A stretch of DNA of 64,000 bases from Candidatus Yanofskybacteria bacterium CG10_big_fil_rev_8_21_14_0_10_36_16 (lineage in GTDB: Bacteria > Patescibacteriota > Minisyncoccia > 2-02-FULL-40-12 > IGHO2-01-FULL-4-A): assembly GCA_002794035.1 (NCBI GenBank), contig PCXQ01000001.1, positions 3,256 through 67,255 on the forward strand, in the 5' to 3' direction. Below the pieces are notes generated by a model, which was given only the letters and a program-made list of their open reading frames with translations, did no database searches and had not been told where the DNA came from. The position numbers and the translations under genes are program-made. Of the stretch, positions 5,594 to 64,000 are shown piece by piece. The number at the start of each line of letters is the position of its first letter. Positions within the stretch are counted from its first letter, which is position 1.

Positions 5594-6514
5594 TTATAAT
5601 ACCTTCTTGCCTATAATATAAAGCCAGTACCACAGCTTATTTATAGGTAAATCAAAAGAACCAAAATACTCAATTTCACTACCTCCCCAACCTTTTTTAA
5701 ATCTTGTAACTCCGGGCCACTTTTTTTCATCAATCCCCCAAAAATCATAATGTTTTAATCCTGCTGATTTTAAAAATTTTATAATTTCCCAATGAAGCAC
5801 GAAGGGTGCCATGGCGGCTCTCATATTATAGTCAGATGCTCCATGAAGATAATAGCCGGTTTCTTTAAAAATTAATATTAAAGCAGAAGCTACAGGTTTT
5901 GAATTAAATTCAGCCGTAAAGATTTTGATTTGTATATCATCACTATTTTTAAAGTAGTCTATAAGCTTATGGTAGTAATTTTCAGAATGAGTGCTGAATT
6001 TGTCTTTAATAGATGTTTTTTTGAGAAGTTGCCAAAAAGTTTCTACATTATTATGTTGCTCTACTATTATAGAATGTTTTTTAGCAACGCGAATGTTGTA
6101 ACGAGTTTTAGAGTGCATTTCTGATAAAAGCTCATCTTCAGTTTTTTCTAAATTTAAAATCTGGGTCTTGTTGGGTTGAATTTGTTTTTTTGATTTTCTA
6201 AAACCTGATTCAATAAGTTTATCCGAAATTTTTTTAGACAATGGTTCTGCTTTTATGTAAATATATTTTTTTTCTTTTGAAATTTTTTTTAAATAAGATA
6301 CAAAATTTTCCGGAGAGAATTTGTCCTCATTGACAGCTAATGGTCCATGGGGTATATATAAATAATTTTTATTGACATATGGCATGTCGTGTTCTATTAT
6401 TTCAGCCCTAATTTCTCCCTCATGGTATTCAAAAACATTCCTGCCAATGTGCCTTTGGAATTCTAACCACGATTTTGATTGTAAAAATGACTCCATGTTT
6501 GAATTGAACATCAA
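5594..6514 (-). CDS. FemAB-family peptidoglycan interpeptide-bridge peptidyltransferase
   Basis: 306 aa. N-terminal FLQSKSWLEFQ and overall FemX-like pattern. Directly upstream of murE on the same strand. Confidence 0.75.
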   Translation of the reverse strand: MMFNSNMESFLQSKSWLEFQRHIGRNVFEYHEGEIRAEIIEHDMPYVNKNYLYIPHGPLAVNEDKFSPENFVSYLKKISKEKKYIYIKAEPLSKKISDKLIESGFRKSKKQIQPNKTQILNLEKTEDELLSEMHSKTRYNIRVAKKHSIIVEQHNNVETFWQLLKKTSIKDKFSTHSENYYHKLIDYFKNSDDIQIKIFTAEFNSKPVASALILIFKETGYYLHGASDYNMRAAMAPFVLHWEIIKFLKSAGLKHYDFWGIDEKKWPGVTRFKKGWGGSEIEYFGSFDLPINKLWYWLYIIGKKVL

Positions 6515-7350: not shown

Positions 7351-7380
7351 GCCTTACTATAATAATTTAACCTTAAATAA

Positions 7381-9423
7381 TTGTTTAAATTAAGCTCAAA
7401 ATTTAAGCCTACAGGCGACCAGCCCCAAGCAATAGATAGGCTGATACGAGGAATTAAAACAGGCGAAAAACACCAGACGCTTTTAGGCGTGACGGGTTCC
7501 GGCAAGACCTTTACTATTGCAAACGTAATCGCGAATGTTAAAAAGCCAACTCTTGTAATATCTCATAATAAGACCCTTGCAGCCCAGTTATATCAGGAGT
7601 TTAAAGAGTTTTTTCCGGAAAATGCCGTTCATTATTTTGTTAGTTACTATGATTATTATCAGCCAGAGGCCTATATTCCCCATTCAGACACGTATATTGA
7701 AAAAGATGCCAAAATAAACGAAGAAATAGACCGTCTTAGACATGCTTCAACCCAAGCTCTTATAAGTCGAGACGATGTTATTGTTGTGGCCTCGGTTTCT
7801 TGTATTTATAACCTTGGTTCTCCTGAAGATTATGATAATTTGTGTTTGGATGTTGTTGAGGGTCAAAAAGTAAGGCCGGGAGAAATTGCTGGGCATCTTG
7901 CCAGATTGCAATACGGATATGAACTTGAGCTTAAAAGAGGTACTTTCAGGAAATCAACAAAAGAAATAGAAGTAGCATCAGCTACCGGCGATAGGATTAC
8001 AAAAATAAAATTTAAGGGCAATGTTGTAGAAAAAATATCAGTTGCTGACAACGTTGAATTAGATGACATATTTTATAAAGATCCTAAGTTTGAGAAGGTT
8101 GTTGAAACAAAAATATTCCCTGCAAAGTATTGGATTGCCACAAATGACAAAACTGATTTGGCTATACAAAACATAAGGGCAGAACTGCAAAAACACATTA
8201 AAAAACTAGACAAGGAGGGGCTTTATGTAGAAGCAGAGCGTCTTAAATCAAGAACCGAATATGATATGGATATGATCAAAACCGCCGGTTATTGTCATGG
8301 AATTGAAAACTACTCAAGCCATCTTGATTTTAGAAAACCCGGAGAACCTCCATATACACTATTGAACTTTTTTTCCGCCAAAGGTGGATCCGCCTCCGGA
8401 GGAAAGACTAAGGGAGATTTTTTAACAATAATAGATGAATCTCACATGACTATTCCTCAAATAAGAGGTATGTATGGCGGGGATCATTCAAGGAAGACAA
8501 CATTGGTTAAGCATGGATTCCGCTTGCCTTCTGCCATTGATAATAGGCCTTTAAAGTTTGATGAGTTTGAAAAAAAAATTGATCAGAGAATATATGTATC
8601 TGCGACCCCTGGTCCCTATGAGCTTAAAAAAACAAAGAAAAGCAACGTTGTGGAGCAGTTTGTTAGACCCACAGGACTTCTTGATCCAGTTGTAGAAATT
8701 AAGCCAACAAAAAACCAGATCCCCCATTTAATATCTGAGATAAAGAAAAGAAACGATAATAACCAAAGAACTCTTGTCACAACCATTACAAAAAGGATGG
8801 CGGAAGACTTGTCAGAACATTTGGCGGACGAAGGCATAAAAGTAAATTATATTCATTCGGAGATCAAAACTTTAGATAGGCTTGAAATCATAAGGGATTT
8901 GCGTCTTGGCAGATACGATGTTGTTGTAGGGGTTAATTTGTTGAGAGAGGGTTTGGATTTGCCCGAGGTATCTCTTATCGCTATTCTTGATGCAGACAAA
9001 GAGGGCTTTTTAAGAAATGCGACAACCCTGGTTCAGACAATGGGCAGAGCAGCAAGGCATATTGAGGGAAGAATCATAATGTATGCTGACAAGATAACAA
9101 AATCTATGCAATTTGCTATTGATGAGACAGAAAGACGTAGAAAAATTCAAGAGACCCATAATAAAAAACACGGAATAACGCCAAAAACTATCATAAAGGA
9201 GATAGGTCAAAATTATTTGCCGGCAGGAAAAGGAAAAAAAGAAAAGATAAGCCGTTGGACTAGTTATGATCCTAAAGACGAAGAAGAACCAGAGAAAATG
9301 CTTCCTGAACAGCGTCTTGAATATCTTGAAAAAGAGATGAAGAATGCGGCTAAAAGACTACAATTTGAAAAGGCTATGATTATGCGTGAAGAGGTTTTAA
9401 GGTTAAGAAAAGAAGTTGGCTAG
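7381..9423 (+). CDS. uvrB: Excinuclease ABC subunit B
   Basis: 680 aa. GVTGSGKTF Walker A, IIDESH, helicase motifs, C-terminal UVR domain (FEKAMIMREEV). TTG start. Confidence 0.95.
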   Translation: MFKLSSKFKPTGDQPQAIDRLIRGIKTGEKHQTLLGVTGSGKTFTIANVIANVKKPTLVISHNKTLAAQLYQEFKEFFPENAVHYFVSYYDYYQPEAYIPHSDTYIEKDAKINEEIDRLRHASTQALISRDDVIVVASVSCIYNLGSPEDYDNLCLDVVEGQKVRPGEIAGHLARLQYGYELELKRGTFRKSTKEIEVASATGDRITKIKFKGNVVEKISVADNVELDDIFYKDPKFEKVVETKIFPAKYWIATNDKTDLAIQNIRAELQKHIKKLDKEGLYVEAERLKSRTEYDMDMIKTAGYCHGIENYSSHLDFRKPGEPPYTLLNFFSAKGGSASGGKTKGDFLTIIDESHMTIPQIRGMYGGDHSRKTTLVKHGFRLPSAIDNRPLKFDEFEKKIDQRIYVSATPGPYELKKTKKSNVVEQFVRPTGLLDPVVEIKPTKNQIPHLISEIKKRNDNNQRTLVTTITKRMAEDLSEHLADEGIKVNYIHSEIKTLDRLEIIRDLRLGRYDVVVGVNLLREGLDLPEVSLIAILDADKEGFLRNATTLVQTMGRAARHIEGRIIMYADKITKSMQFAIDETERRRKIQETHNKKHGITPKTIIKEIGQNYLPAGKGKKEKISRWTSYDPKDEEEPEKMLPEQRLEYLEKEMKNAAKRLQFEKAMIMREEVLRLRKEVG

Positions 9424-9797: not shown

Positions 9798-10946
9798 TTA
9801 ATCTAATTCTTCCGCTAGTTCTTCCACCAATTTCTTTGCTTTTTTATTTAATTTATTGGGCATTTTTATATTTACTTTGACTATCTGGTCACCGGCTCTA
9901 TACCCTCCAAATCCTGATTGGCCATAAATTCCCAAACCTTTTAGGCGTATTTCTTGACCATCGTGGGTCCCAGGTTCTATTTTAATTTTTGATTTGCCAT
10001 CAATTGTAGGAACGGTAGTTTCTGTGCCAAGAAGAGCGTCCGTTAGTTTGAGTGGCATTTCGTATAGGATATCATTGCCTACGCGTTTAAAGTTTTCATC
10101 GGTGGTTGCATTAATGTGTAAATATAGATCTCCTGCTGAAGCACCTCTCAATCCTGCTTGGCCGGCACCTTTAACTGCCAATACTTCGCCGTTTTTGATA
10201 CCTGCAGGAATATTTATTTCCAAGACTTGTTTTTCTTTGTTTTTACCTGTGCCTTTGCAATGAGGACATTTTTCTTTTGGTATTTTGCCGCTACCCTGAC
10301 ATGCCTCGCATGCGGTGACTCTTATAAAGTTGCCAAAAAATGAGCCGGTAGATTCCTTTACTTGCCCTCTTCCTTTACATGTTGGACACTCATCCAAGGG
10401 CGTGCCTTTTTTGGCGCCCAACCCGTCACATTCTTTGCATGCTATATCTTTTTTTATTTCTATTTTTTTAAGTCCACCTCTTGCTATATCGTAAAAACTA
10501 ACCGATAGATTTACGTGAATATCTTCTCCTCGGCCTGCTTGTTGCCTGCTTCCTCTTTGACGAAATCCAAAAGCATCTCCGAACATGTCAAAGATATCAT
10601 CAAAATCAACATTTTGATATTGCCTGTCCTGAGACCCTCCGAAGGGTTGACCTCCCTGAGCGCCTCTGAAGAAATCGCTAAAATCGCCTTGTCTGAAGTC
10701 GAAACCGCCAAAACCTCCTCCACCCCCAGGTTGGCCTCCTTCGTTGAATGTAGAGCCAAATTTATCGTATTGGGAGCGTTTTTGAGGGTTAGACAAGACT
10801 TGATAGGCCTCATTTACCTCTTTGAACTTTTTTTCGTCTCCGCCCTTCTTGTCAGGATGATATTTGTGGGCCATTTTTCTGTATGCCTTCTTTATTTCAT
10901 CCTGAGAAGCGGACCTGTCTATGTCTAGTATTTTGTAGTAATCCAT
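9798..10946 (-). CDS. dnaJ: Chaperone DnaJ
   Basis: 382 aa. J domain with HPD, G/F-rich region, four CxxCxGxG zinc-finger repeats. Confidence 0.95.
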
Positions 10947-11054: not shown

Positions 11055-11185
11055 TATCTAAAAATCCAAAGTCCAAAACCCAAAGCCCAAACCAGTATTG
11101 AAATCCAAAACGTTATTATGCCTTTTGGATTTTGTTTATTTTTAGATTTGGTTGGGATTTTGGATTTTAGATTTTGGATTTTCTA
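11055..11185. repeat. Long imperfect palindrome built of CCAAA / TTTGG units
   Basis: aaaatccaaagtccaaaacccaaagcccaaacc ... ggttgggattttggattttagattttggatttt, immediately upstream of dnaJ. Confidence 0.6.
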
Positions 11186-11971
11186 AAACTCTAACTGTTC
11201 TGCTTCAATTTGCACTATTTTGATTTTTGCTAGGCCGGTTCGTTTTGCCAGCCACACCCAAAACATGGTGATTGGTATTGTAAGCCACACGAATATAAAA
11301 CTCAATCCTTCAAGAACAAGAAATAAACCAAATGCTAAAATTGGAGGCATAAATTGGAAGTATGGCCCAACAAATTCTATGAACTGGTTTGTTACCTGCG
11401 TTATTAGTTGGTTTAGTGCCGATTCTCTTTCTTCTTCAGGCAACTCTCTTATTTCATCTCCCAAAAAAGTGCTTACAGTTCTTTCTATCACTTCATTTAC
11501 TGTGGGAGGAAGTTCTTTATTTGCTGCCTGGCTTTGTATTTTGGGGCTAAAGTAATATCCAAAAGATATCATAATAAAAAGAGGCATCATAACAATCGGC
11601 AACCCTCTTCTCATGATAAGGTGGGTATTTACTACATTTCTTTGTTCTTCCTCGTCTTTGATGATTTTGCCCGCATATAAATGGACCAAAAGGGATAACC
11701 CAACACCTATAAAGAAAAAGTAATTAAAGCCGAAAACTAAGAAAAATGGCAATACAACTGCAAGGGATATCCCTAGTCTTTCAAGGGACTTTCTCATTAA
11801 AAGAAAAGACATAGCTACTAGAGACGACAATACGAGGAGTCCCACTAGAGGTTGAATCCAAGCTTCAGCAACAGCAAAAAGAGATGAACCATAAAGCCAG
11901 GGTTTTGTAACAGCCCAAAACCAAGTAGATAGCGCAAGAATTATTATAAGTGTAATTGGTTTTTTATACAT
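11183..11971 (-). CDS. Polytopic membrane protein, unknown function
   Basis: 262 aa with several hydrophobic helices. No recognisable motif. Confidence 0.55.
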   Translation of the reverse strand: MYKKPITLIIILALSTWFWAVTKPWLYGSSLFAVAEAWIQPLVGLLVLSSLVAMSFLLMRKSLERLGISLAVVLPFFLVFGFNYFFFIGVGLSLLVHLYAGKIIKDEEEQRNVVNTHLIMRRGLPIVMMPLFIMISFGYYFSPKIQSQAANKELPPTVNEVIERTVSTFLGDEIRELPEEERESALNQLITQVTNQFIEFVGPYFQFMPPILAFGLFLVLEGLSFIFVWLTIPITMFWVWLAKRTGLAKIKIVQIEAEQLEF

Positions 11972-12111
11972 GCTTATATTTTAACACAATTTAATTTTTG
12001 CAGCTTCAACAATTACAACATTTTTATCAGCATCAGCGCCTTTATCGGTGAGTATGGTTTATAACATCCCAGCCCCGCCGAAGCAGAGCTGGGATGTTAG
12101 GGTTTTTTGTT

Positions 12112-14052
12112 TTATTCATTTTCTTGCCCTGGGTTTGTTTGTGGTGAGGAATCAGAATCTGTCGAAGGGTTTTCTTCTTTTGATGTTTTGGTTTCCTTAT
12201 TGCCTTCTGCCTCGCCATTTTTGGGCTCGGCATCTCCGGCACTTCCAGCACCTCCGGCATACATTGCTTGGCCTACTTTTTGAACTGATTGTGATAATTC
12301 TTCTGTAGTTTTTTTGATTTCATCTGTGTTATCGCTGTCCTTTGCTTTCTTTAGGGCCTCAATTTTTTCTTCAATTTCTTTTTTGTCTTCTTCTTTTAAT
12401 TTGTCGCCTGCGTCTTTAAGGGCTTTTTCAGACGAGTAAATCAAAGTTTCGGCCATATTTTTTGTTTCAACTGCTTCTTTTTTCTTTTTATCTTCCTCTG
12501 CGTGTTTTGCTGCTTCTTCTGTCATTCTTTTCTTTTCTTCATCAGTTAAACCTGATGAACCTTCAATCTTTATTGATTGTTCTTTGCCTGTGGCTTTGTC
12601 CTTTGCTTTTACGTTTAGTATTCCGTTGGCATCAATATCAAAGGATACTTCAATTTGAGGAACGCCACGAGGTGCTGGAGGAATACCGTCAAGAATAAAC
12701 CTACCTAAGGTTTTGTTATCAGCAGACATTGGTCGTTCACCTTGCAAGACGTGTATTTCAACAGACGGCTGATTGTCAGCGGCAGTTGAATAGGTTTGTG
12801 TTTTTGAAGTCGGCACAGTGGTGTTTTTCTCTATCATTCTTGTCATCACACCGCCCAATGTTTCAATACCAAGTGATAAAGGCGTAACATCAAGCAAAAG
12901 TACGTCTTTGACATCACCTTGCATAATTCCTCCTTGAATAGCTGCTCCCATTGCCACAACTTCATCAGGATTAATATCTTTGTGGGGCTCTTTGCCAAAA
13001 AGTTCTCTTACAGCACTAACTATTGCAGGCATTCTGGTTTGTCCCCCAACAAGTATCACTTCGTTAATATCTGATGGTTTAAATCCAGCGTCTTCAATTA
13101 CTTTATTGGTAATATCAATTGATTTTTTAATATGCCCCTCAACTAATGATTCAAGCTTTGCTCTTGTGAAATTAATGTTAAAATGCTTGGGTCCTGATGA
13201 ATCAGCAGTCAAGAAAGGTATATTGACGTCGCTTTGGTTTGTGGTTGATAGTTCGTGCTTGGCTTTTTCTGCAGCATCTTTTAAGCGCTGTAGAGCCATT
13301 TGGTCTTTTGAGACATCGATTCCTTGGTCTTTTTTAAATTCTTCAGCAAAATAATCAATTATGTGCTGATCAAAGTCATCTCCCCCAAGGTGAGTATCGC
13401 CTCCTGTTGATTTTACTTCTATTGTGTCTTCAGATACTTCAAGCACGGAAACGTCGAAAGTTCCTCCACCAAAGTCGTAAACAACTATTTTTTCATCTTT
13501 TTTCTTGTTAAAACCGTAAGCTAAAGCAGCGGCTGTTGGCTCGTTGATTACCCTTTTTACTTTAAGGCCTGCAATTTCGCCCGCATCTTTTGTGGCTTTT
13601 CTTTGAGAGTCGTCAAAGTATGCCGGTACAGTAATAATGGCTTCTTCTATTTTTTCACCTAGTTTGTCTTCGGCATCTGCTTTTAATTTTTGCAAAATCA
13701 TAGCTGATATTTCAGCAGGCTTGTAGTTTTTGTCAGCCATTTTTATTTCTACTGCACCATGAGAACCCTCATGGATGTCATAAGGTAATGTTTTCTTGTC
13801 ATGTTGGACTTCGGGGTCTGAAAATCTGCGTCCAATAAGGCGCTTGGCAGAAAATATAGTGTTAGTAGGATTTGTTACCGCCTGTCTTTTTGCTGTAATT
13901 CCTGCATAACGATCTCCGTTCTTACCTATGGCTACTATTGAAGGCGTTGTTCTCATGCCTTCCTTGTTTTCTAAAATTCTTGGCTGGCCTGCGTCTACTA
14001 TAGCCATGGCGCTGTTTGTTGTTCCTAGGTCTATTCCTAATATCTTGGGCAT
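12112..14052 (-). CDS. dnaK: Chaperone DnaK (Hsp70)
   Basis: 646 aa. [24 protein letters not shown]-type motifs. Long acidic/Lys-rich C-terminal tail. Confidence 0.97.
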
Positions 14053-15049: not shown

Positions 15050-15175
15050 TCAAAACTCAAAATTCAAAATCTCAACTAAACCCAAATATTTAAAATTCAA
15101 ATACAGGAAAGCTTAACTTTAGTTTTGGATTTAAATATTGGTTTGGATTTTGGGCTTTGGATTTAGGATTTTTTA
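15050..15175. repeat. Second CCAAA / TTTGG palindromic array
   Basis: caaaactcaaaattcaaaatctcaactaaacccaaa ... tttggatttaaatattggtttggattttgggctttggattt, upstream of hsp20 and downstream of grpE. Confidence 0.55.
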
Positions 15176-15209
15176 AAGATAATTTAATTAAGATAACTTT
15201 TTTTCTAAT

Positions 15210-18808: not shown

Positions 18809-20239
18809 TTGAAAATATTTAACACTCTTACAAAGAAAAAGGAATCATTTAATTTACCCGATAAAAAAGTTCGGATGTTTGTTTGTGGTCCTACAGTTTA
18901 TGACTACCCTCATATAGGACACGCCCGTACTTATATAATGTTTGACGTTGTTGCTAAGTATCTTCGCCACGAAGGGTACGATGTTTTTTATTTACAAAAT
19001 ATCACAGATATTGATGATAAAATAATTGCCAGAGCTAAGGAGCAAGGCAGAGAGATAAAAGAACTTACAGAAGAATTTGAAAAAATATATATGGAGGATA
19101 TGGTAGCCCTTGGTATTAATTCAGTTGATAAATACGCCAGAGCCACAGAGCACATATCAGAGATTGTTGCGCAAGTTAAAAAGTTAATAGACAAAGGTCA
19201 TGCGTATAAAATAGATCCTTCGGCAGAGCTCAGGACAAGCGGCCTCGCTTCTTCAGACGGGGCAGGCGGTTATTATTTTGATTTATCTACTTTTGAAGAT
19301 TATGGTAAATTATCAGGCAGAACGGCGGCACAAGCCGAGGATTCAGTGTCTAGAATAGATGAAAGCGTGGGTAAACGAAACAAGGGTGACTTCGTGTTAT
19401 GGAAACTGTCTAAGGAGGGCGAATCTGGTTGGGAATCAGAATTGGGTTACGGTAGACCCGGTTGGCATATTGAAGATACTGCAATAAGCGAGAAGTATCT
19501 AGGAGATCAATATGAAATTCATTGTGGCGCACAGGATTTGATGTTTCCTCATCATGAATCAGAAATAGCCCAACAGGAAGCGGCTTCAGGCAAAAAGCCC
19601 TTTGTTAAGTATTGGTTGCATTCAGGACTGCTAACTGTAGAAGGAAAGAAGATGTCAAAGTCTCTTGGTAATTTTGTGACCATAAGAGATATATTAGAAA
19701 AATATCCTGCCGAAGCAGTTAGGATGATGTTCTTGATGAGTAATTATCGATCCCCTGTTGATTATAGTGAACAAAATTTAAAACAGGCAGAGGCAGCAGT
19801 TCAAAGAATTTCCGAATTTGTAAATAGGCTTAATTTATCTAGCAGCCCAGGTGATAGTGGTTTAGATCGCATCATCTTAAATGATTCAAAAGAGCAGTTT
19901 GAAAAAGAAATGGACGATGATTTTAATACGCCGAAAGCTGTAGCTGTAATTTTTGATTTGATTAAGAAAATTAATCCAATGATTGACGAAGGCAAAATTA
20001 GCAAAGATGATGCAGAAATAACCTTAGGTATATTAAATGAATTTAACGATGTTTTAGGGGTGGTTCCTGCAGAATATTCTAGTGTTCCTGATGAAATTAA
20101 AAAGCTTGCAAAAGAGCGCGAAGAATTAAGAAAAGACAAAAAATTTGAGGAAGCAGACAAAGCTCGGGATGAATTAAAAGAAAAAGGATTTAAAGTAGAA
20201 GATACAGAATGGGGCCCTTTGATTAAAAAGATTAAATAA
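18809..20239 (+). CDS. cysS: Cysteine--tRNA ligase
   Basis: 476 aa. HIGH (PHIGHARTY) and KMSKS motifs. TTG start. Confidence 0.95.
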   Translation: MKIFNTLTKKKESFNLPDKKVRMFVCGPTVYDYPHIGHARTYIMFDVVAKYLRHEGYDVFYLQNITDIDDKIIARAKEQGREIKELTEEFEKIYMEDMVALGINSVDKYARATEHISEIVAQVKKLIDKGHAYKIDPSAELRTSGLASSDGAGGYYFDLSTFEDYGKLSGRTAAQAEDSVSRIDESVGKRNKGDFVLWKLSKEGESGWESELGYGRPGWHIEDTAISEKYLGDQYEIHCGAQDLMFPHHESEIAQQEAASGKKPFVKYWLHSGLLTVEGKKMSKSLGNFVTIRDILEKYPAEAVRMMFLMSNYRSPVDYSEQNLKQAEAAVQRISEFVNRLNLSSSPGDSGLDRIILNDSKEQFEKEMDDDFNTPKAVAVIFDLIKKINPMIDEGKISKDDAEITLGILNEFNDVLGVVPAEYSSVPDEIKKLAKEREELRKDKKFEEADKARDELKEKGFKVEDTEWGPLIKKIK

Positions 20240-26283: not shown

Positions 26284-26388
26284 AGAGCATATGTAGCGGG
26301 GTTAGCCATCGGTGATGGTAATTTGTTTAACCCAAATGGTAGAGCGACAAGATTGAGAATAATTTTAGTAATTTTTCGTATTTTTTAA
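26284..26388 (+). pseudogene. Possible remnant of a LAGLIDADG homing endonuclease
   Basis: 34-codon start-less frame RAYVAGLAIGDGNLFNPNGRATRLRI... bounded by stop codons. VAGLAIGDG resembles the LAGLIDADG motif. Confidence 0.3.
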
Positions 26389-26428
26389 CAATAAAACAGC
26401 CCCGCCACGGCGGGGCTGTTTTATTGTT
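26387..26428. terminator. Bidirectional terminator, 19-bp perfect stem
   Basis: aacaataaaacagccccgc-cacg-gcggggctgttttattgtt. Confidence 0.8.
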
Positions 26429-26438
26429 AAAAAAGTTT

Positions 26439-43810: not shown

Positions 43811-43897
43811 GATGGATTTCTCCACCTGTTACCCTTTCGGGTAACAACCACTGCTGGTGCTCCTAAACGACGGGTTTAGTACCCAGCAGTGGTTTTT
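43811..43897. promoter_or_regulatory. Cluster of GC-rich hairpins (candidate structured leader or small RNA)
   Basis: gatgga-tttc-tccacc, gttaccc-tttc-gggtaac (GAAA loops on the minus strand), and a 10-bp stem ccactgctgg/ccagcagtgg enclosing ctaaac-gacgg-gtttag, then TTTTT. Confidence 0.4.
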
Positions 43898-44012
43898 ACG
43901 TCATACCTCAAATGTTGACATTTTGAGGGTTAGGCAATTTTTAGTTGTTAGACCAATATTATCACAAAACCTTGAAAATCTCCATAATTTTCGTTTTACT
44001 TAAATTAATACT

Positions 44013-48058: not shown

Positions 48059-49702
48059 ATGGAAAAAACAAAAAGATTAGCTGCTCTATATGGTAGAGTA
48101 AGCACATCAAACCAAGAGGACCAGAAAACAATTGAGAACCAAGTTGATGCTCTTAATGAGTTAGCGAACAAAAATGATTTTACCATTGTTCAAGAATATA
48201 AAGATGATGGTTGGTCCGGAGATATTTTAGCCAGACCGGCCCTTGATCAGCTAAGGCAAGATGCAAAAAGTAAAATATGGGATACTTTGTTAATTTACGA
48301 TCCGGATAGGTTGGCCCGAAGATACTCATACCAGGAGTTGATTATGGACGAGTTAAAAGAGGCCGGGGTTGAAGTGATATTTATTACTGTATCTGCACCA
48401 AAAAATCCTGAAGATAAGATTTTGCATGGAGTTCGGGGGTTATTTGCAGAATATGAGAGGGTACGGATTACAGAACGTTTTCGTTTAGGAAAGCTCCGCA
48501 AGGTAAAAAACGGCCATGTATTAACAACGGAAGCCCCTTATGGCTATAACTACATAAGAGGAGACAGAGAAAGGCAAATACACGGTTATTATAAAATTAA
48601 CCCCGAGGAAGCAGAGGTTGTAAAAAAGATTTTTCAGTGGATTGGGGATGAAAAACTAAATATCAGAGCTGTTGTAAGAAAATTAAAAGAAGTAGGAATT
48701 AAACCAAGAAAAGCCAAAAGAGGTGTTTGGGCTACGAGCACAATATCAACAATGCTAAAAAACGGGGCTTATATTGGAGAGGCACATTGGGGTAGTTCGT
48801 ATGCAGTAGTACCCGAAAATCCAATCAAAAAAGAGAAGTATAAAAAAATGAAAAAAAGTAGCCGGAGAATAAAACCGAAAGAAGATTGGATAGCATCTAA
48901 AATACCTGTACCTGCCATAATAACCAAGGAGCTGTTTGCAAAGGTACAAAAACAACTAAAAACAAATTCCTCTCTATGTCCAAGAAATAAAAAATATACA
49001 TATCTACTAGGCGGCAAAATACATTGTGTATGCGGTAAAACCAGAAGTGGAGTAGGCCCACAGCGCGGTAAGCATCTATACTATCGCTGTAATGACAGGA
49101 TTTATAGCTTTCCTATACCTCCTACCTGTAAAGAACAAGCCATCAATGCAAGGATAGCTGATGAATTAGTTTGGAATAAAATAGCAAATCTTATGAGTTC
49201 ACCGGAATTGTTAAAAAACCAAGCAGAAAAATGGTCTGATTCTCGCAAGGTGGGGGCAAGATCTCATATTGGCGATATAGAAACAACAGAAAAGGAAATA
49301 TTAAAGTTAAAAGCACAGGAGGATCGCTATAATAAAGCATATGGTGCCGGGGTGTTTGATATAAACCAATTAAAAGAGTATGTTGCTCCGGTAAGAGAAC
49401 GAATAGAATTGTTAAAATCCCAAATAGTCAAAATCAAACAGGAAGAAAACCAGTCGCAAGACAATGCCCTCCCCTCGCTAGATGAAATCCGGTCATTTAC
49501 GAAAGTAACAAGAAATGCTTTATTTAACTTGAATTTTGAAATGAAAAGAGCCACAATTTTAAATGTTATAGATAAAATTATCGGTACACAAAAACAATTG
49601 AAGGTGTATGGTCAAGTGCCGATAACACAAAATTATGTCACATACAAAACTAGCTATCGGTATAGTCGGGTTGCCCAATGTTGGAAAATCAACATTATTT
49701 AA
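48059..49702 (+). CDS. Large serine recombinase (integrase)
   Basis: 547 aa. N-terminal resolvase domain (AALYGRVSTSNQ), recombinase domain, Cys-rich zinc ribbon (CVCG...YYRC), coiled coil. The last 68 nt overlap ychF. Confidence 0.9.
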   Translation: MEKTKRLAALYGRVSTSNQEDQKTIENQVDALNELANKNDFTIVQEYKDDGWSGDILARPALDQLRQDAKSKIWDTLLIYDPDRLARRYSYQELIMDELKEAGVEVIFITVSAPKNPEDKILHGVRGLFAEYERVRITERFRLGKLRKVKNGHVLTTEAPYGYNYIRGDRERQIHGYYKINPEEAEVVKKIFQWIGDEKLNIRAVVRKLKEVGIKPRKAKRGVWATSTISTMLKNGAYIGEAHWGSSYAVVPENPIKKEKYKKMKKSSRRIKPKEDWIASKIPVPAIITKELFAKVQKQLKTNSSLCPRNKKYTYLLGGKIHCVCGKTRSGVGPQRGKHLYYRCNDRIYSFPIPPTCKEQAINARIADELVWNKIANLMSSPELLKNQAEKWSDSRKVGARSHIGDIETTEKEILKLKAQEDRYNKAYGAGVFDINQLKEYVAPVRERIELLKSQIVKIKQEENQSQDNALPSLDEIRSFTKVTRNALFNLNFEMKRATILNVIDKIIGTQKQLKVYGQVPITQNYVTYKTSYRYSRVAQCWKINII

Positions 49703-50783
49703 TGCCCTGACTAAAAAACAAGTAGATATTTCTAATTATGCTTTTACAACGATCGACCCAAATGTCGGGGTTGTTGGGGTACCTGATGAAAGATTAGATA
49801 AATTGGCCAAGATGTCTAATTCCGAGAAAATTACCCCTACGGCCATTGAATTTATTGATATCGCAGGTCTTATTAAGGGCGCAGCAGAAGGAGAAGGGTT
49901 GGGTAATAAGTTTTTAGCTAATATTCGTGAAGTAGATGCCATTGCTCACGTAGTAAGGGTTTTTCCCGCCGGAGGCGGGTCCGCTCATGGCGGAGAAATA
50001 CAGCATGTGCACAAAAATATTGATCCGGTAAATGATATTGAAATAATCAATCTGGAATTAATAATGGCTGATTTGCAGACTATTGAAAGAAGATTAAGGG
50101 AGACAAAAGGCAATGACCCTGCCAAGACTTTTGAAAAAGAGGTGTTAAACAAACTTAAAGAAAATTTAGAAAAAGAAATTCTTGCAATAAACATTTTATT
50201 TACTGAAAAAGAACAAGAAATTGTTCGTGGGTTACATCTTTTAACCAACAAAAAAGTTATATATGCCTTTAATGTGGCAGAACAACAGTTGAAAGACAAT
50301 TGGCAGCCTAACAAAGAATTGCTTGATGTTATAAAAAACAATGAATTTGTTGTTGTCTCAAATACGTTTGAACAATTGCTATCTGAATCAGACCCTGAAG
50401 AAAAAAAGGTTTATCTTGAAGAACTAGGTTTAAAATATAGCGGTTTAGATCAGCTTATAAAAAAAGGATACAAGGCTCTTGGTTTAATTACATTTTTGAC
50501 AACTGGTCCTAAAGAAACACGTGCTTGGACAGCTCATGAGGGTGATTCTATCCCCCGTGCGTCATCTGCTATCCATACTGATTTTGAAGAAAAATTTATT
50601 AAAGCCGATGTGATAAATTGGCAAACACTTTTAGATGTAGCGGTCCATTCGGCGGATTCGGGTTCCTCATCACAAGCAGGCTCAGGCCAAGCTTGGTCTA
50701 AAGCAAAAGAGCTTGGCAAGATGAGAACAGTTGGTAAAGATTACATAATTCAAGAAGGTGATGTAGTCGAGATTAAAATTTGA
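49635..50783 (+). CDS. ychF: Ribosome-binding ATPase YchF
   Basis: 382 aa. GIVGLPNVGKSTLFNALT, DIAGLIKGA, C-terminal TGS-like domain. Two GC-rich in-frame insertions. Confidence 0.95.
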   Translation: MSHTKLAIGIVGLPNVGKSTLFNALTKKQVDISNYAFTTIDPNVGVVGVPDERLDKLAKMSNSEKITPTAIEFIDIAGLIKGAAEGEGLGNKFLANIREVDAIAHVVRVFPAGGGSAHGGEIQHVHKNIDPVNDIEIINLELIMADLQTIERRLRETKGNDPAKTFEKEVLNKLKENLEKEILAINILFTEKEQEIVRGLHLLTNKKVIYAFNVAEQQLKDNWQPNKELLDVIKNNEFVVVSNTFEQLLSESDPEEKKVYLEELGLKYSGLDQLIKKGYKALGLITFLTTGPKETRAWTAHEGDSIPRASSAIHTDFEEKFIKADVINWQTLLDVAVHSADSGSSSQAGSGQAWSKAKELGKMRTVGKDYIIQEGDVVEIKI

Positions 50784-50897: not shown

Positions 50898-50914
50898 AAT
50901 AAACAGTAGTTTTT

Positions 50915-50945
50915 AAAAACCCCGCCAAGGCGGGGTTTTTGATTT
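50915..50945. terminator. Bidirectional terminator
   Basis: aaaaaccccgcc-aa-ggcggggttttt. Confidence 0.8.
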
Positions 50946-51513: not shown

Positions 51514-51893
51514 TTTATAAATGGCTAAAACACTTTAACAAAAGTGTGCATTAAATTAAAATAACCACTTGTGTTAAAGCGTTAGATTACTAATTAAAGT
51601 GTCAAAGTATCTTTTATACGAAAGGTGAGGCAAATGGCCACAGGTTGTTTATGTATGCGAATGCTACGTATGCGATCGCAAAACTGGTCAACATGAGCAT
51701 AAAAAACTCTGTTTTTATTCTCTTCGTGTTGTTTTGGGATTGGACCATGTAATTATTACTCAATATATTTGCATGATGCAAAATAAATAAAGAGCAGATT
51801 AGGAACTTTTTATTACTACTAATATTATATCACTAATATTTCAAAATATTATAAACAGTTATTAAAAAACCCGCTAAGGCGGGGTTTTTAATT

Positions 51894-54464: not shown

Positions 54465-54763
54465 TAAAACAATAGTGGTGGGATTTTTGAGTCTACTAAA
54501 AATATTATAAGTCCGATTATCGCGCCAACGGCCGATATCAACACAAAAGTCGCGGGCCCCTCCCTCGCTGGCTAGGGATCCACTCCCGCTCCTTGAAACC
54601 TTGCGGTTTCAATACTTCCACTATGGGGAAACACCCAGTTTCCCCAGCCCCCCTTCTGATTTCGGATGATATCAGTTTTTTGTTGATTAAAACAATAGTG
54701 GTGGGATTTTTGAGTCTACTAAAAATATTATAAGTCCGATTATCGCGCCAACGGCCGATATCA
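54465..54763. repeat. 76-bp perfect direct repeat of the mraY 3' end flanking a 147-bp GC-rich insert
   Basis: Copies at 54465-54540 and 54688-54763. The insert (54541-54687) contains hairpins gaaacc-ttgc-ggtttc and ggggaaac-accca-gtttcccc. Confidence 0.85.
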
Positions 54764-55760
54764 TCCAAAATCTCATGGTGATTTGGGTTTCATGCCAGCC
54801 CTTGGCCTCGAAATGGTGGTGTATGGGAGTAGATAGGAAAATCTTTTTGCCTCGTAATTTTTTTGAGGTTATTTGAACTATCACAGATAAAGATTCACCA
54901 ACAAACACTAGGGCTATAATTGGTAAAAGCAAAGCGGTATTGGTTAGCATGGCAATAATACCCAGAACAACCCCCAAAGACATTGACCCCGTGTCGCCCA
55001 TAAAAAATTTGGCAGGATAAATATTGAACCACAAAAATGCTACAAGAGCTCCCATGATGGATGCTATAAACACAACGAGATCCATCCTTTCTTGAACAAA
55101 AGCTATTGCGCCATAAGCGGCAAACATGGTTAAGAAGGTTCCACCAGCAAGTCCATCAAGGCCATCAGTTTCATTTGCTGAAAATGCAGTCGCTACGATA
55201 ATAAATATAAAGAATGGAATGTACCACCACCCTATTGCCATGTCTCCTGCAAAAGGTATGTTTATTGAATTAAAGTCCAATTTAAAGAAGAACCACCATG
55301 CACCTCCTGTAGCAACAAGGAGGTAAAGACCTATTCTGTGGCGCATTTTAAGGCCTCCTCCGTTAGGTCCTATTCGAAATACTCCAAAAAGATCATCTGC
55401 CAACCCAAACATTGCAGCAACAAAAAGAGCGCCTAATGGCAACAGTGTCTGTGCACGAGATAGAAAATTCCAATCAGACCAAGTTCCGTTGTAAAGGCTG
55501 GCAAAAAAAGAAAAACCAAGAGTTACGATTATTACAGTTGCCCAAACTACTACCCCGCCCATAGTGGGTGTTCCTTCTTTTTTTTTGTGCAGTTTATTAA
55601 AAATGGGTGCCGAATCGCTTCCTTTTAATTGCTTGCCAAGATTGTTTTTTTGGATAACTTTATTCCATGCGGGTGTTAATATTATTGCAATAAAAAAAGA
55701 TAGTGTCGCCACCACGAAAACTCTGACAACGTTAAAAACAGTAAATGTTTCGCCTATCAA
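54687..55760 (-). CDS. mraY: Phospho-N-acetylmuramoyl-pentapeptide transferase
   Basis: 357 aa. Typical MraY motifs (NETDGLDGLA, GDTGSMSLG, PIHHHFE). Confidence 0.95.
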   Translation of the reverse strand: MIGETFTVFNVVRVFVVATLSFFIAIILTPAWNKVIQKNNLGKQLKGSDSAPIFNKLHKKKEGTPTMGGVVVWATVIIVTLGFSFFASLYNGTWSDWNFLSRAQTLLPLGALFVAAMFGLADDLFGVFRIGPNGGGLKMRHRIGLYLLVATGGAWWFFFKLDFNSINIPFAGDMAIGWWYIPFFIFIIVATAFSANETDGLDGLAGGTFLTMFAAYGAIAFVQERMDLVVFIASIMGALVAFLWFNIYPAKFFMGDTGSMSLGVVLGIIAMLTNTALLLPIIALVFVGESLSVIVQITSKKLRGKKIFLSTPIHHHFEAKGWHETQITMRFWMISAVGAIIGLIIFLVDSKIPPLLF

Positions 55761-56891: not shown

Positions 56892-58307
56892 CTATTTTTT
56901 TTTAGACACTTGCAGATGCAATTCTTTTAATTGTTCTGATGTTAAGTCGCTTGGTGCGTCCATCATAAGGTCTCGGCCATCTCCGGTTTTGGTAAAAGCT
57001 ATGACTTCTCTAATGTTTGGTTCATTGGTAAAAATTGATATTAACCTATCAAAACCCCAAGCTATACCACCGTGGGGTGGAGCACCATATTCAAATGCTT
57101 CAAGCATGTGTCCGAAATTTTTAGATGCGGTATCAGCATCAAGGCCTATTATTTCAAAAACTTTTCTTAATATTTCAGGTTTGTGGCTTCTAATGCTTCC
57201 TCCCCCAATCTCAAGTCCGTTTAGAACAATGTCGTATTGGCTTGTGAGTATTTCGCCTATTTTTTCTTTTTTAAGTAGCCAATTCGTATGTGCTTTATTT
57301 GGCATTGAAAACGGATTATGAGTAAAAGTCCATTTCTTTTCCCCGCCAGAGTCGGGTCCGCCTTCGGCGGAAAAAAATGGGAAATCAATTACCCAACAAA
57401 AAGCCAAAAGATTTGGGTCTTCTTTGTCTTTGCGCAAATCAGGTCTGTCTGAATTATACTTTTCCATAGCTTCTTTATATGATATGCGCGGGAAAGGAAT
57501 CTCTTGAATTTTTTTGTCTGGTAGAAGATTTTTTACTATTTCAATTAACAGTTCCTCATTGACTTGCATAACATCTTCGCGTTCGACAAAAGACATTTCC
57601 ATGTCCATTTGGGTGAATTCGGGTTGTCTGTCCCCTCTGGTATCTTCGTCCCTGAAACATCTTGCCATTTGAAAATATTTTTCAATACCGGCGACCATTA
57701 AAAGTTGTTTATATTGCTGGGGTGCTTGGGGCAGAGCGTAAAATTTTCCTTCATGAACACGAGAAGGCACAACATAGTCTCGTGCTCCCTCCGGTGTAGA
57801 TTTTGATATTATCGGTGTTTCTACTTCTATAAAACCTTTCTCCGTTAGCCAATTTCTTATAAATTGACTGGTCTTGTGTCTTAATTGTAAATTTTTTCTC
57901 ATTCTTTCACGGCGTAAATCAAGATAGCGGTATTTCATTCTGTTTTCTTCTCCGATTTCTTTGCCATCAGAATCAATTTCAAAAGGCGGGGTTTTTGATT
58001 CGGAAAGTACTTCAAGCTCAATTGGTTTAAGTTCAACTTTGCCTGTTTCAATTTCTGGATTTACCATTTTTTCAGGCCTTTCAGTCATTTTGCCTTTTAT
58101 TTTGATAACCCATTCTGGTCTTAATTTCTCTGCTTTTTTATGGAGTTCCTCATCCTTGGGCGTAAAAACAACCTGAAGCAAACCGCTTCGGTCTCTAAGA
58201 TCAATAAAAATTAGTTTGCCGTGATCCCTTCTGGTGTGGACCCAGCCAGCAACCTCAACTTCTTTGTCTATGTTTTGGATTGTGTCCAATATAGAAATAC
58301 GTGTCAT
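56892..58307 (-). CDS. aspS: Aspartate--tRNA ligase, bacterial-type core without the GAD insertion domain
   Basis: 471 aa. OB anticodon-binding domain and class II motifs (FRDED, GGGSIR). SDRPDLR is followed almost directly by VIDFPFF. Confidence 0.9.
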   Translation of the reverse strand: MTRISILDTIQNIDKEVEVAGWVHTRRDHGKLIFIDLRDRSGLLQVVFTPKDEELHKKAEKLRPEWVIKIKGKMTERPEKMVNPEIETGKVELKPIELEVLSESKTPPFEIDSDGKEIGEENRMKYRYLDLRRERMRKNLQLRHKTSQFIRNWLTEKGFIEVETPIISKSTPEGARDYVVPSRVHEGKFYALPQAPQQYKQLLMVAGIEKYFQMARCFRDEDTRGDRQPEFTQMDMEMSFVEREDVMQVNEELLIEIVKNLLPDKKIQEIPFPRISYKEAMEKYNSDRPDLRKDKEDPNLLAFCWVIDFPFFSAEGGPDSGGEKKWTFTHNPFSMPNKAHTNWLLKKEKIGEILTSQYDIVLNGLEIGGGSIRSHKPEILRKVFEIIGLDADTASKNFGHMLEAFEYGAPPHGGIAWGFDRLISIFTNEPNIREVIAFTKTGDGRDLMMDAPSDLTSEQLKELHLQVSKKK

Positions 58308-59246: not shown

Positions 59247-59330
59247 GTAATAAATATGCCAAAAATTAAGCTAAATTTCAAGTCACTCTAAATATTTATT
59301 ATGTTCTTATAACATTAAATTATGGTTAAG

Positions 59331-59364
59331 AAAAAGTAATGGCCCCGCACTTCTTGGTGCGGGG
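59331..59364 (-). terminator. Terminator of the GC-rich cassette
   Basis: ccccgcac-ttcttg-gtgcgggg, with a T-run on the minus strand. Confidence 0.65.
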
Positions 59365-59388
59365 CACGGGGTTGGAGGTTGGGGTCGC

Positions 59389-59619
59389 CTAGTGAAGGCG
59401 GCCGGCGTGAATGGGTTCAAACCGGATCGGATGAGCCCACAGAGATTCGATCGCGACGCTCCCAAGAGCTCGCGCCTCCTCGGACGAGATTGCCAGAAGC
59501 CCCAAGGGAACCTCCGGAAAAGACTGTTCCTCCTCCTCTGGAGTTCTTCGGCCTCGCCGTTTCTCGTTTCCCCTGACCTTGCGAGGCCAGGAGACATCAT
59601 CTCTCTGCATCTTCTGCAT
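59389..59619 (-). CDS. 76-aa ORF inside a ~60% GC island (unknown function; coding status uncertain)
   Basis: AGGAGG 7 nt upstream of the ATG. MQKMQRDDVSWPRKVRGNEKRRGRRTPEEEEQ...LAISSEEARALG... Three other ORFs overlap it because of the high GC. Confidence 0.4.
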   Translation of the reverse strand: MQKMQRDDVSWPRKVRGNEKRRGRRTPEEEEQSFPEVPLGLLAISSEEARALGSVAIESLWAHPIRFEPIHAGRLH

Positions 59620-60108: not shown

Positions 60109-60210
60109 GTTGTTGGGGTCTTTAATAGTAAATAGATAAATATAGATTAAATGATTTTGTTGTTTTCGTAAACTTAATAATTAAAAACCCCGCCTAGGCG
60201 GGGTTTTTGT

Positions 60211-60779: not shown

Positions 60780-60836
60780 CCCCACACTCATGCATGAGTG
60801 TGGGGATTAAAAACCCCGCCTAGGCGGGGTTTTTAA
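60780..60836. terminator. Tandem hairpins: a 26-nt perfect palindrome plus a ccccgcc/ggcgggg terminator
   Basis: ccccacactcatgcatgagtgtgggg followed by aaaaaccccgcctaggcggggttttt. Confidence 0.7.
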
Positions 60837-60853
60837 TGATTTTATTTTAAGGA

Positions 60854-62708: not shown

Positions 62709-62960
62709 ATGTCTAGAACAACTTCACAAGATCGAATGAATCAACTTCTTATAAAGCATTACCAAGGTCTTATGACAACAAGTGAACGTTTTGAGCTTCA
62801 TCGGTTATTGAAAGAAAAGTATGCATACGGGGTGCAAATGCTCGAGTATCGTTGTCCTAAATGTAACACACCATTAACCTTTTCTTGGGCTGATGGCCCA
62901 GCTTGTATGTGGTTTACCGGTGGTTGTGGGTGGACTCCTCACCGTGAAGATTTAGTTTAA
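62709..62960 (+). CDS. Hypothetical zinc-ribbon protein
   Basis: 83 aa. CPKC...GGCGW. Followed by the terminator ccccgc-tttc-gcgggg. Confidence 0.45.
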   Translation: MSRTTSQDRMNQLLIKHYQGLMTTSERFELHRLLKEKYAYGVQMLEYRCPKCNTPLTFSWADGPACMWFTGGCGWTPHREDLV

Positions 62961-63052
62961 ACCCCGCTTTCGCGGGGTTTTAATTTGCCATAATAATTAT
63001 TGCTCTCATGCTCCATGACACTTTGGGTTTTTATTCACTGTCACACATGATA

Positions 63053-63399: not shown

Positions 63400-63590
63400 G
63401 CAAGAATTTCTATTCCTGCGTCATGTGGCACTTTTTATCCATTCGACTCCTCCTCGACAAGCTCGGAGCCGCTCAGGATAAACGTTGTCTCGGTCTAACG
63501 CTCGTGACAACGTTTATATCCCAGTACCAGAACCTGCGGTTCGGTACGGGACTGCACTCGCTAAATGTAGCTATATAAAATTTCAGCTCG
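63400..63590. repeat. Cluster of GC-rich palindromic repeat units downstream of secA
   Basis: ggataaacgttgtc...gacaacgtttatatcc and cccagtaccagaacc-tgc-ggttcggtacggg hairpins. The segment tccattcgactcctcctcgacaagctcggagccgctcagg resembles the in-frame inserts in ychF and cysS. Confidence 0.6.
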
Positions 63591-63598
63591 CTTGTTTT

Positions 63599-64000
63599 TT
63601 ATCCTTTATGATGAGGAGCATTTATCATTCCGCACTTTTTCCATTTATATAGTTGTCCTGTATTAGGATTGGTTGCTCCGCATGGACAGGGATCGTTTCG
63701 GCCTACCTTTTGAGTATTTTTGATCGGTTTAGAATTGTTTTGGTTTTGGTTGTTTGGATTTTGAGTTTGGGGTTTTGGATTTTCAAAAATGTTTGCTCTC
63801 CCTTCCTTTGTCTCTTGTCTCTGGGGTTTTTTTAATATTGTTACCTTAAATATTGTATTTGCGACTTGAGTACTTATTGTTTGTTGTAATTCTTTAAACA
63901 ATCTTTGCCCTTCAACTTTATACTCAACCAGAGGATCTTTTTGGCCATAAGCACGAAGGCGAACAGAATCACGAAGCTGTTCCATTGTTTCAATGTGATC
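63599..64000 (-). CDS. secA: Preprotein translocase SecA, C-terminal part (gene runs off the right window edge)
   Basis: DHIETMEQLRDSVRLRAYGQKDPLVEYK matches the SecA helical scaffold. C-terminal KVGRNDPCPCG zinc-finger motif. Frame is open to base 64000. Confidence 0.9.
   Translation of the reverse strand, partial: DHIETMEQLRDSVRLRAYGQKDPLVEYKVEGQRLFKELQQTISTQVANTIFKVTILKKPQRQETKEGRANIFENPKPQTQNPNNQNQNNSKPIKNTQKVGRNDPCPCGATNPNTGQLYKWKKCGMINAPHHKG

Follow-up and report, generated by a model that had tools for sequence, protein, structure and literature searches.

The ychF gene of Candidatus Yanofskybacteria bacterium CG10_big_fil_rev_8_21_14_0_10_36_16, which codes for the redox-regulated ATPase YchF, holds two short GC-rich inserts in frame, called here element A and element B. 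The gene is part of a stretch of 64,000 nt that was analysed as a whole (assembly GCA_002794035.1, contig PCXQ01000001.1, positions 3,256 to 67,255 of the forward strand; hereafter the window), the GC content of which is 36%. On balance, the two inserts probably represent two families of ultra-short GC-rich insertion modules that colonise coding sequences of this AT-rich genome. The membership of the inserts in the two families is observed directly, as are the copy numbers, the exact alleles with and without the modules, the reading-frame bias, the patchy distribution, the nesting and the spread across phyla that are described below. Element A is a clearer and stronger case than element B, the insert on which the original prediction was centred, and the phenomenon is more general than that prediction proposed.

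Two inserts in YchF

The host gene of both inserts is found at 49635..50783 on the plus strand as an open reading frame (ORF) of 382 codons, the product of which is identical to NCBI PJE51580.1 and consists of the Pfam domains MMR_HSR1 and YchF-GTPase_C; gene callers chose a later start codon than that of the 382-aa ORF. The AspRS, UvrB, CysRS and DnaK proteins of the window are, like YchF, identical to proteins of the metagenome-assembled genome Candidatus Yanofskybacteria bacterium CG10_big_fil_rev_8_21_14_0_10. Among solved structures, YchF is closest to that of Haemophilus (1jal, E = 3e-86). Compared with three solved YchF structures, the window protein is longer by about 7 residues after VRVFP (AGGGSAH...) and, in its C-terminal domain, by 13-16 residues ahead of W-S-K-A-K. 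The same two sites were inspected in 119 relatives with 57-72% identity. At the site of A, between VRVF and HVH, 108 relatives have the 6 residues of the empty state and eight have 13 residues with PAGGGSASGGE or PAEGGSASGGE, which correspond to PAGGGSAHGGE in the window; three carry a 9-residue variant of another type. At the site of B, before W-S, the empty state of 6 residues is found in 106 of the 119, an extension by 8 aa to 14 residues (HSTGSGQA-type) in eight, one by 16 aa to 22 residues in two, namely the window protein and the relative P0059, and one by 22 aa to 28 residues in a single protein. Both inserts are thus real, as they are missing from the solved structures and from about 90% of the 119 close relatives.

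The original prediction that YchF has extra segments where homologues have short loops therefore agrees with the solved structures and with the relatives, and the orthologue alignment moves their boundaries to 50646-50693 for B (16 codons, H338-A353) and 49965-49994 for A. Furthermore, in an AlphaFold model of YchF (mean pLDDT, the predicted local distance difference test score, 80.7), values below 50 occur at residues 112-126 and 344-348, which are modelled as coil and coincide with both inserts. An 8-aa form of B is common to the closest relatives.

Element A in the window

Element A is a double hairpin of 30 nt, (TCCGCC-NNN-GGCGGA)x2, i.e., two tandem 15-nt hairpins with 6-bp stems and 3-nt loops. 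The copy in ychF (49965..49994, or 49962-49997 with its TTT and GAA flanks) reads CCCGCC-GGA-GGCGGG TCCGCT-CAT-GGCGGA, is translated as PAGGGSAHGG and differs from the consensus at 4 of 30 positions. Another copy is inserted in uvrB (7381..9423, plus strand) at 8374..8403, where TCCGCC-AAA-GGTGGA TCCGCC-TCC-GGAGGA, with 3 mismatches in 30, gives SAKGGSASGG in the context FF-SAKGGSASGG-KTKG. The third is in aspS (56892..58307, minus strand) at 57342..57371; its coding strand, TCCGCC-GAA-GGCGGA CCCGAC-TCT-GGCGGG (4/30 mismatches), gives SAEGGPDSGG in the context FF-SAEGGPDSGG-EKK. These are exactly the three copies of the window, counted against the cross-phylum consensus; none is found with 5-9 mismatches, and the expectation under a Markov model is 0. 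A repeat search of the window paired 49963-49998 with 8368-8405 and 57343-57377, and in Smith-Waterman comparisons among 69 GC islands of the window the three copies score 32-40 with one another, against a background of 12 +/- 2.5 and a next-best pair at 26.

The small insert had been described earlier as built from two GC hairpins (cccgcc-gga-ggcggg and tccgc-tcatg-gcgga), and indeed this DNA folds with a free energy of -12.6 kcal/mol (z = -3.0). Folding of the uvrB copy is weak (z = -1.0). Changes that break the stems are present in all three genes: GGT and GGAGGA in uvrB, CCCGAC in aspS and TCCGCT in ychF. The window copies have begun to drift toward local codon usage (GGT, GGA), which breaks the stems. 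In the long ORFs of the window, TCC accounts for 9% of the Ser codons and GCC for 21% of the Ala codons, both of which are used in the copies of A, and GC content at third codon positions is 0.5-0.6 in the copies versus 0.31 in the genes. Such a composition marks the copies as foreign and as of DNA-level origin. The ychF copy matches the ychF copy of the relative P0005 at 32 of 36 nt (89%), the two proteins being only 64% identical.

Several terminator-like bidirectional hairpins of the form AAAAACCCCGCC-NNN-GGCGGGGTTTTT are also located in the window, at 50913-50943, 51861-51892, 60179-60208, 60806-60837, 62959-62979 and 26381-26434; their stem (CCCGCC/GGCGGG) nearly equals the stems of element A.

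Filled and empty alleles

The uvrB site gives the clearest definition of the element. In 111 of 119 UvrB relatives it is empty (DFF/KTKGDFL, the slash marking the site), and in eight it is FF-SAKGGSASGG-KTKGDFL, exactly 10 aa longer; the solved UvrB structure 1d9x shows a 12-aa gap against the window protein at element A. At the DNA level, an empty allele (L251) reads GAT TTT TTC/AGG ACC AAA and a filled one (L252) reads TTC TTC (TCC GCC AAA GGC GGA TCC GCC TCT GGC GGA) AAA ACC AAG, so that the difference is exactly 30 nt and nothing is duplicated at the target. A T-run and an A-run as parts of the element were considered and discarded, as L252 has TTC TTC upstream and the empty uvrB alleles already hold the flanks. 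Because the flanks pre-exist and the T-run is not required, element A is taken to be the 30-nt core. Upstream of the element TTT or TTC usually stands, TTT however being a part of the pattern used for the search; eight secondary copies that were found without this flank bias have a T-rich 5' or an A-rich 3' flank, not always both.

The distribution of A among orthologues is patchy. In AspRS, about 18 of 120 relatives carry A at the loop occupied in the window, and about 75 are empty there. On a crude neighbour-joining tree of the 120 proteins, built without the loop, the 18 carriers require 12 state changes or more, as compared with 17.2 on average, and never fewer than 13, for randomly placed labels.

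The element can also be a target itself. In the uvrB gene of L253, a second palindromic insert of 39 nt is nested in loop 2 of A, and similar composites are found in P0276 and in several AspRS genes. Other recurrent GC-rich inserts are known from the same alignments: the AspRS loops hold PALRSSEGAKK, AAHSEALAxE (in up to four tandem copies), VHPEAAAEGLPQ and PGEGSGEAGIASG, the YchF loops hold KPRRQSVGAPTETSEE, TPVPSAKGGATGQAS, QPAGEAGS and FDKAQGKS, and LSAAPGT is a further example from the AspRS, YchF and UvrB alignments. Probably, these are additional module families, and some of them look like hybrids of A and B. Since the same loops gather such inserts, A and B appear as two members of a broader population of modules.

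Element A in other genomes

A scan with a strict pattern over contigs representing one genome per species recovered at least 120 loci with at least 126 copies of A. As in the scan for B given below, the stem sequences were fixed, and the counts are therefore lower bounds, with conservation, abundance and taxon range as biased estimates. By our own estimate, made by hand from about 50 bits of pattern information and about 1.2e12 positions, fewer than 0.2 chance matches are expected. According to a hand count of record titles, about two thirds of the loci listed are from Patescibacteria of many classes. The others listed are from Omnitrophota, Planctomycetia, Verrucomicrobiota, Kiritimatiellia, Lentisphaerae, Ignavibacteriota (in long-read contigs of 1.0-1.6 Mb) and metagenome-assembled genomes labelled Gammaproteobacteria, and single loci among the matches listed are labelled Melainabacteria, Margulisiibacteriota, WOR-1, Zixibacteria, Auribacterota and Bacteroidota; all these labels are the submitters' own. 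An assembly artefact was rejected as the source of A, because copies are present in contigs of 0.7-1.6 Mb from long reads as well as in the Illumina assemblies of many projects, and show a strong frame bias. Carriage by phages was likewise discarded as the main route: 2.9 million viral contigs contain two matches to A and none to B.

Very different genes, most of them essential, serve as hosts: purA, ahcY, pheT, uvrB (at another site), uvrC, aspS, hsdR, pyrH, ctpA, rpoC, leuS, recJ, mfd/recG, secA, clpB, gyrA, mnmA and polX. Among the 126 copies listed, 92 are located inside stop-to-stop ORFs of at least 150 aa, and 81 of these (88%, where one third is expected) are read as F-SA-x-GG-SA-x-GG-K/E, the Arg-rich and Pro-rich frames being used by seven and four copies, respectively. 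Such a bias points to translation of the inserts and to selection acting on them as a filter. As the element is symmetric, both orientations give one and the same peptide. The loops vary independently of each other, loop 1 being purine-rich (AAA, AGA, GGA, GAA) and loop 2 pyrimidine-rich (TTT, TCT, TTC). An origin of A by inverted duplication of an 18-nt half was tried and rejected, for no more than 20 of the 126 copies have two exactly complementary loops, with about 14% expected by chance (hand estimate).

Larger structures are associated with A in some genomes. In the Omnitrophota genome BS750m-G21, A forms the tip of long palindromes between genes, each arm of which consists of tandem CAGGTTA/TAACCTG heptamers, in at least six copies on four contigs (L027 at 6060-6160 and 7360-7460, also L017, L035 and L045). 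It seems that A is the centre of a larger, composite repeat here. Low-complexity repeats like those of the GATTTTGGATTTT type flank many A copies in other genomes; in the window this type is present at 11151-11188, 15141-15178, 63752-63789 and other positions, the copy at 63752-63789 being part of the Asn/Gln/Lys/Pro-rich tail of a SecA C-terminal ORF (63599-63985).

Element B, a 24-nt unit

Element B is a unit of 24 nt, CCTTCGACAGGCTCAGGGCAGGCT, which is the dominant form among the matches listed. In the window ychF, an array of about two tandem units occupies 50646..50693 on the plus strand, directly 5' of the conserved TGG of W354, with the DNA sequence CAT TCG GCG GAT TCG GGT TCC TCA TCA CAA GCA GGC TCA GGC CAA GCT and the peptide HSADSGSSSQAGSGQA. 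Its best match in the window, and a clearly significant one, is a long copy at 12123..12169 on the minus strand, which forms the 3' tail, i.e., the last 16 codons, of dnaK (12112..14052, minus strand). The two agree at 36 of 47 nt, ungapped and in the same frame, with a score of 39, whereas the best-of-window scores of shuffled sequences are 23.7 +/- 2.4 (maximum 30) and triplet shuffles do not exceed 27. A diverged dimer is located in cysS (18809..20239, plus strand) at 19217..19267 on the plus strand; it has the form CCTTCGGCAG-A-GCTCAGGACAAGC..., is read as PSAELRTSGLASSDGAG, and as the best window match to the B-dimer consensus scores 29 versus a shuffle maximum of 26. This insert of about 16 aa is missing from solved CysRS structures in PDB. 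One extra base shifts the frame within the unit (PSA-E-LRTS), and that B DNA is read here in another frame speaks for a DNA-level origin. Second-best among the window matches to the B dimer is the Gly/Phe-rich linker of dnaJ (10621-10664, minus strand), with a score of 26, equal to the shuffle maximum; it is either derived from B or a chance match.

In relatives, shorter forms are found. The ychF genes of L003 and L004 carry CGT TCG ACT GAC TCA GGG CAG GCC, and the unit is inserted in aspS as CCT TCG ACC GGT TCA GGG CAA GCT (L125) or CCT TCG GCG GGC TCA GGG CAA GCT (L126). In both genes of these relatives, a conserved TGG follows B directly, and the gain over the empty form is exactly 8 codons, so that the insertion is clean. 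The long B of the P0059 ychF is 73% identical to that of the window, compared with 51% for the 24 flanking codons. A scan of JGI metagenome contigs with CNTTCGRCNGGYTCAGGSCARGCY gave at least 120 B loci, in DNA with GC contents of 0.36-0.73. The unit is sharply bounded: 1.8 bits are contained in the C before it, and about 0 bits in the flanks. Some of the loci are tandem arrays with a period of 24 nt, and no inverted partner of B was found within 300 nt. B is not palindromic, unlike the Rickettsia palindromic elements (RPEs) to which the inserts had been likened.

The inserts might be ordinary lineage-specific Gly/Ser-rich loop extensions, in which case the likeness of their DNA would be a by-product of amino-acid composition. 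Both sites are indeed variable in the YchF family, the 8-aa form of B is conserved as a peptide in the closest relatives, and the low-complexity region of DnaJ is also weakly B-like. This reading is nevertheless contradicted by the codon, frame and shuffle tests, since the codons are rare for the genome, the ychF-dnaK score of 39 lies far from the triplet-shuffle maximum of 27, and cysS reads the same DNA in a different frame; identical strings of 30 and 24 nt are present, moreover, in unrelated genes, in different phyla and in non-coding DNA. It is very improbable.

A B-like sequence between genes

A candidate degenerate array of B is located at 63440..63477 on the plus strand, in the spacer between two minus-strand genes. 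The original prediction regarded the ychF insert as kin to an intergenic repeat at 63441-63480. A pairwise kinship of the two is not significant: Smith-Waterman alignment of 50640-50698 with 63400-63600 scores 18, a value that 6.4% of the dinucleotide shuffles (14.1 +/- 2.1) also attain (p about 0.06). The intergenic site is not among the best window matches to the ychF insert, and the label of a repeat has to be dropped, as there is no second copy in the window. At the level of the family, weak support remains. With a hidden Markov model (HMM) of tandem B units, whose training sequences are all from outside the window, the top nhmmer matches in the window are the intergenic site (E 0.14), cysS (E 0.27) and ychF (E 0.35); three matches at that level where 0.35 are expected correspond to P of about 0.005. 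In an ungapped comparison with B the intergenic sequence shows 6 mismatches in 25, and 0.9 such matches are expected. Probably, the stretch is B-like, and the family profile weakly suggests kinship with the B of ychF.

The same spacer contains two more strong hairpins at 63478-63563 (plus strand), ATAAACGTTGTC...GACAACGTTTAT with a 12-bp stem and CCCAGTACC...GGTACGGG. They have no Rfam match and no other copy in the window, and may represent a small RNA or additional hairpin modules.

Origin of the modules

As insertion modules, A and B would be non-autonomous selfish DNA propagated in trans. A would arrive as a clean insertion without target duplication at the tip of a surface loop, typically with a T-rich codon before and an A-rich codon after it, and would persist where translation of its 10 codons gives Ser-Ala-x-Gly-Gly-Ser-Ala-x-Gly-Gly, which makes a flexible loop that does no harm. 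B would be inserted cleanly, as directly before the Trp codon in ychF and aspS, would form tandem arrays and would be read as Pro/His-Ser-Thr-Gly-Ser-Gly-Gln-Ala. As a best guess, A may be moved by an enzyme of the HUH, IS200-IS605 or RAYT type that recognises hairpins in single-stranded DNA, since it has two terminal hairpins and leaves no target duplication, a fit that draws on established knowledge of such enzymes. Homologous recombination at conserved flanks could then spread the filled alleles between relatives, which would explain why the same site is occupied in different lineages. Within YchF, the inserts would have no required function.

Several points weigh against this scheme. B is not palindromic and has no structure that hints at recognition. 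The conservation and taxon range of A are biased by the fixed stem sequences of the scans. Element A is present in the same aspS loop of a Saccharibacteria (L020) as in Yanofskybacteria. No presence/absence polymorphism within a population and no empty alleles inside protein clusters of 90% identity were found. No partner enzyme, RAYT and TnpA included, has been identified: the one recombinase of the 64-kb window is a large serine recombinase, of a kind unlikely to mobilise modules like these, and TnpA was not searched for. Two further points, the replacement of codons at some sites and the strong conservation of A in uvrB, lead to other explanations.

In ychF and aspS, a filled allele exceeds an empty one by only 21 and 18 nt, respectively, 3-5 loop codons having been replaced, which resembles repair or indel events more than simple transposition. 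The modules may accordingly be filler, copied into double-strand breaks or stalled forks from genomic copies or, through a reverse transcriptase, from a small RNA or its cDNA. Template switching or microhomology in such repair would produce clean insertions, codon replacement, tandem arrays and nested or merged forms, and the lack of target-site duplication, the 24-nt tandem arrays of B, the nested and hybrid inserts and the accumulation of many insert types at the same loops all fit. Yeast mitochondrial GC clusters, the closest analogue, are likewise proposed to move partly via RNA, to merge and to shuffle (PMC4478555). Such filler is unlikely as the explanation, however, since repair alone leaves the recurrence of the same 30-nt and 24-nt sequences across phyla unexplained, neither a template RNA nor a reverse transcriptase has been connected with the copies, and in uvrB exactly 30 nt are inserted with nothing lost.

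In uvrB, A is more conserved than its flanks (87% versus about 66%), which could mean selection on the hairpins. Then the double hairpin would be a functional cis-element that selection maintains in the DNA or the RNA, for example as a palindrome to which a protein binds, a signal of mRNA stability or processing or a translational pause, and would spread by recombination because it is useful. A role as transcription terminator is not indicated, since A has a T-run before and an A-run after its hairpins and no T-run 3' of them on either strand, and this absence is in line with another function. The identity of the stems across phyla with variable loops also looks like such selection, but it is largely imposed by the search pattern, and the window copies carry stem-breaking changes, with the weak folding in uvrB. 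The presence of A in one and the same loop of aspS, and likewise of ychF, in lineages that are far apart and the position at the apex of the Omnitrophota palindromes are in favour; the very heterogeneous host genes and positions, and the absence of A from about 90% of orthologues, are not. A cis-element is improbable, slightly more so than repair filler.

The insertion-module reading may be extended further, tentatively and with considerable doubt. A and B could be products of an unrecognised insertion process common to several phyla, which places ultra-short GC-rich cassettes of fixed sequence in chromosomes, with a preference for hairpin tips and for sites that code for loops, and would be a major source of the many sporadic loop insertions in core proteins of Patescibacteria; this would imply a trans-acting enzyme, whether of the HUH type, a reverse transcriptase or another.

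Comparison with known repeats

RPEs are about 150 bp long, form ten Rickettsia-specific families with a conserved peptide of about 30-50 aa, are dispersed and non-autonomous, and are inserted in frame in housekeeping genes, where the added peptide is compatible with the fold of the protein (PMC10969869). The likeness to them that was suggested earlier holds for the in-frame insertion of GC-rich DNA repeat units in ychF and other, unrelated genes (A in ychF, uvrB, aspS and dozens more; B in ychF, dnaK, cysS and the aspS of relatives), and is strongest for A. Neither family is an RPE, however: membership is excluded by size, A being 30 nt and B 24 nt, and both are distributed over several phyla, B not being palindromic.

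Mitochondrial GC clusters are hairpin cassettes of 30-50 nt, GC-rich in an AT-rich genome and sporadic, whose loops change faster than their stems; they merge and nest, and at least one is found inside a protein gene, as a 48-nt cluster in var1 (PMC4478555). Element A resembles them and the double-hairpin elements of fungal and algal mitochondria in size, architecture, nesting and variable loops, although the constancy of its stems is biased by the pattern. It forms, like them, GC islands in DNA of 36% GC, with sporadic carriers (8/119, 18/120 and 8/119 for YchF, AspRS and UvrB). The yeast cluster GC42 has a putative AG target-site duplication, is mostly intergenic and moves between species by recombination at conserved flanks (PMC4478555). 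Unlike GC42, A is without duplication and mostly intragenic and in frame, and its hosts are free-living or episymbiotic bacteria of many phyla.

Repetitive extragenic palindromic sequences (REPs) are extragenic, and one of their ends bears a tag, GTAG or CGTC (PMC3733652). A is similar to REPs and REPINs, which RAYT transposases (Y1 HUH) mobilise, as a GC-rich imperfect palindrome of 20-40 nt with many copies, which B is not. It differs in that it has no GTAG or CGTC tag (consensus TTT-TCCGCC...GGCGGA-RA), with no more information in its flanks, and in that 92 of the 126 listed copies, including all three of the window, are intragenic.

IS200/IS605 elements are inserted without target duplication and depend on hairpins in single-stranded DNA; A is like the palindrome-associated elements of this group in having hairpins at both ends and no target duplication. 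[quoted passage not shown] No parent element of A was found, the paired matches that lie 1-3 kb apart being separate copies. DNA uptake sequences of Neisseria and Haemophilus and the cyanobacterial HIP1 are also short words inside genes, in frames that give acceptable peptides, but they are 8-12 nt long, belong to single lineages and arise by point mutation and drive, whereas A and B are discrete insertions of 24-30 nt.

In behaviour, the closest known system is thus the RPEs, and in architecture the mitochondrial GC clusters and double-hairpin elements. A and B fail at least one defining feature of every family compared: size for RPEs and MITEs, duplication for MITEs and GC42, and tag or location for REPs. 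In full-text articles outside the subscription-only literature no description of A or B was found, and their sequence strings turned up in nothing but cloning primers and linkers.

If the insertion reading is true, core proteins of Patescibacteria and of several uncultivated phyla are remodelled by cassettes of 24-30 nt, far smaller than any in-frame mobile element described, and many puzzling sporadic loop insertions in core proteins would be explained. It would point to an as yet undescribed insertion machinery common to several phyla and would extend the phenomena of mitochondrial GC clusters and RPEs to free-living and episymbiotic bacteria, opening the movement of hairpin cassettes to comparative study. 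Practically, SAxGGSAxGG and PSTGSGQA, with FDRLRAG and LRQAQGR in other frames, could be masked in alignment, phylogeny and structure prediction, and the modules could be used as presence/absence markers in population genomics.

Other features of the window and related loci

The large serine recombinase mentioned above (547 aa, with Resolvase, Recombinase and zinc-ribbon domains) is encoded at 48059-49702 on the plus strand and overlaps the start of ychF at 49635-49702; it may mark the boundary of an integrated element or prophage. Two GC-rich islands, at 59330-59609 and 54465-54770, reach a peak GC content of 72-75% in the DNA of 36% GC, and the latter is bracketed by an 83-nt direct repeat, 96% identical and spaced 223 nt. 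Neither island has an Rfam match even at E = 0.1, and both may be unannotated structured RNAs or inserted elements.

The Rfam search gave nothing at A, B, the intergenic region or related loci; the only matches are LOOT RNA, tRNAs and one unrelated match to Acido-Lenti-1. Sub-threshold matches to "miRNA" families in L027 were rejected, as they merely reflect long hairpins. In the window, the LOOT RNA is full-length (43811-43936, minus strand; 86 bits against a gathering score of 46.4), and one tRNA is present. Directly downstream of ychF in the related Yanofskybacteria L003, a reverse transcriptase gene (RVT_1) and a bAvd gene are located at 11695-13054, the hallmark pair of a diversity-generating retroelement.

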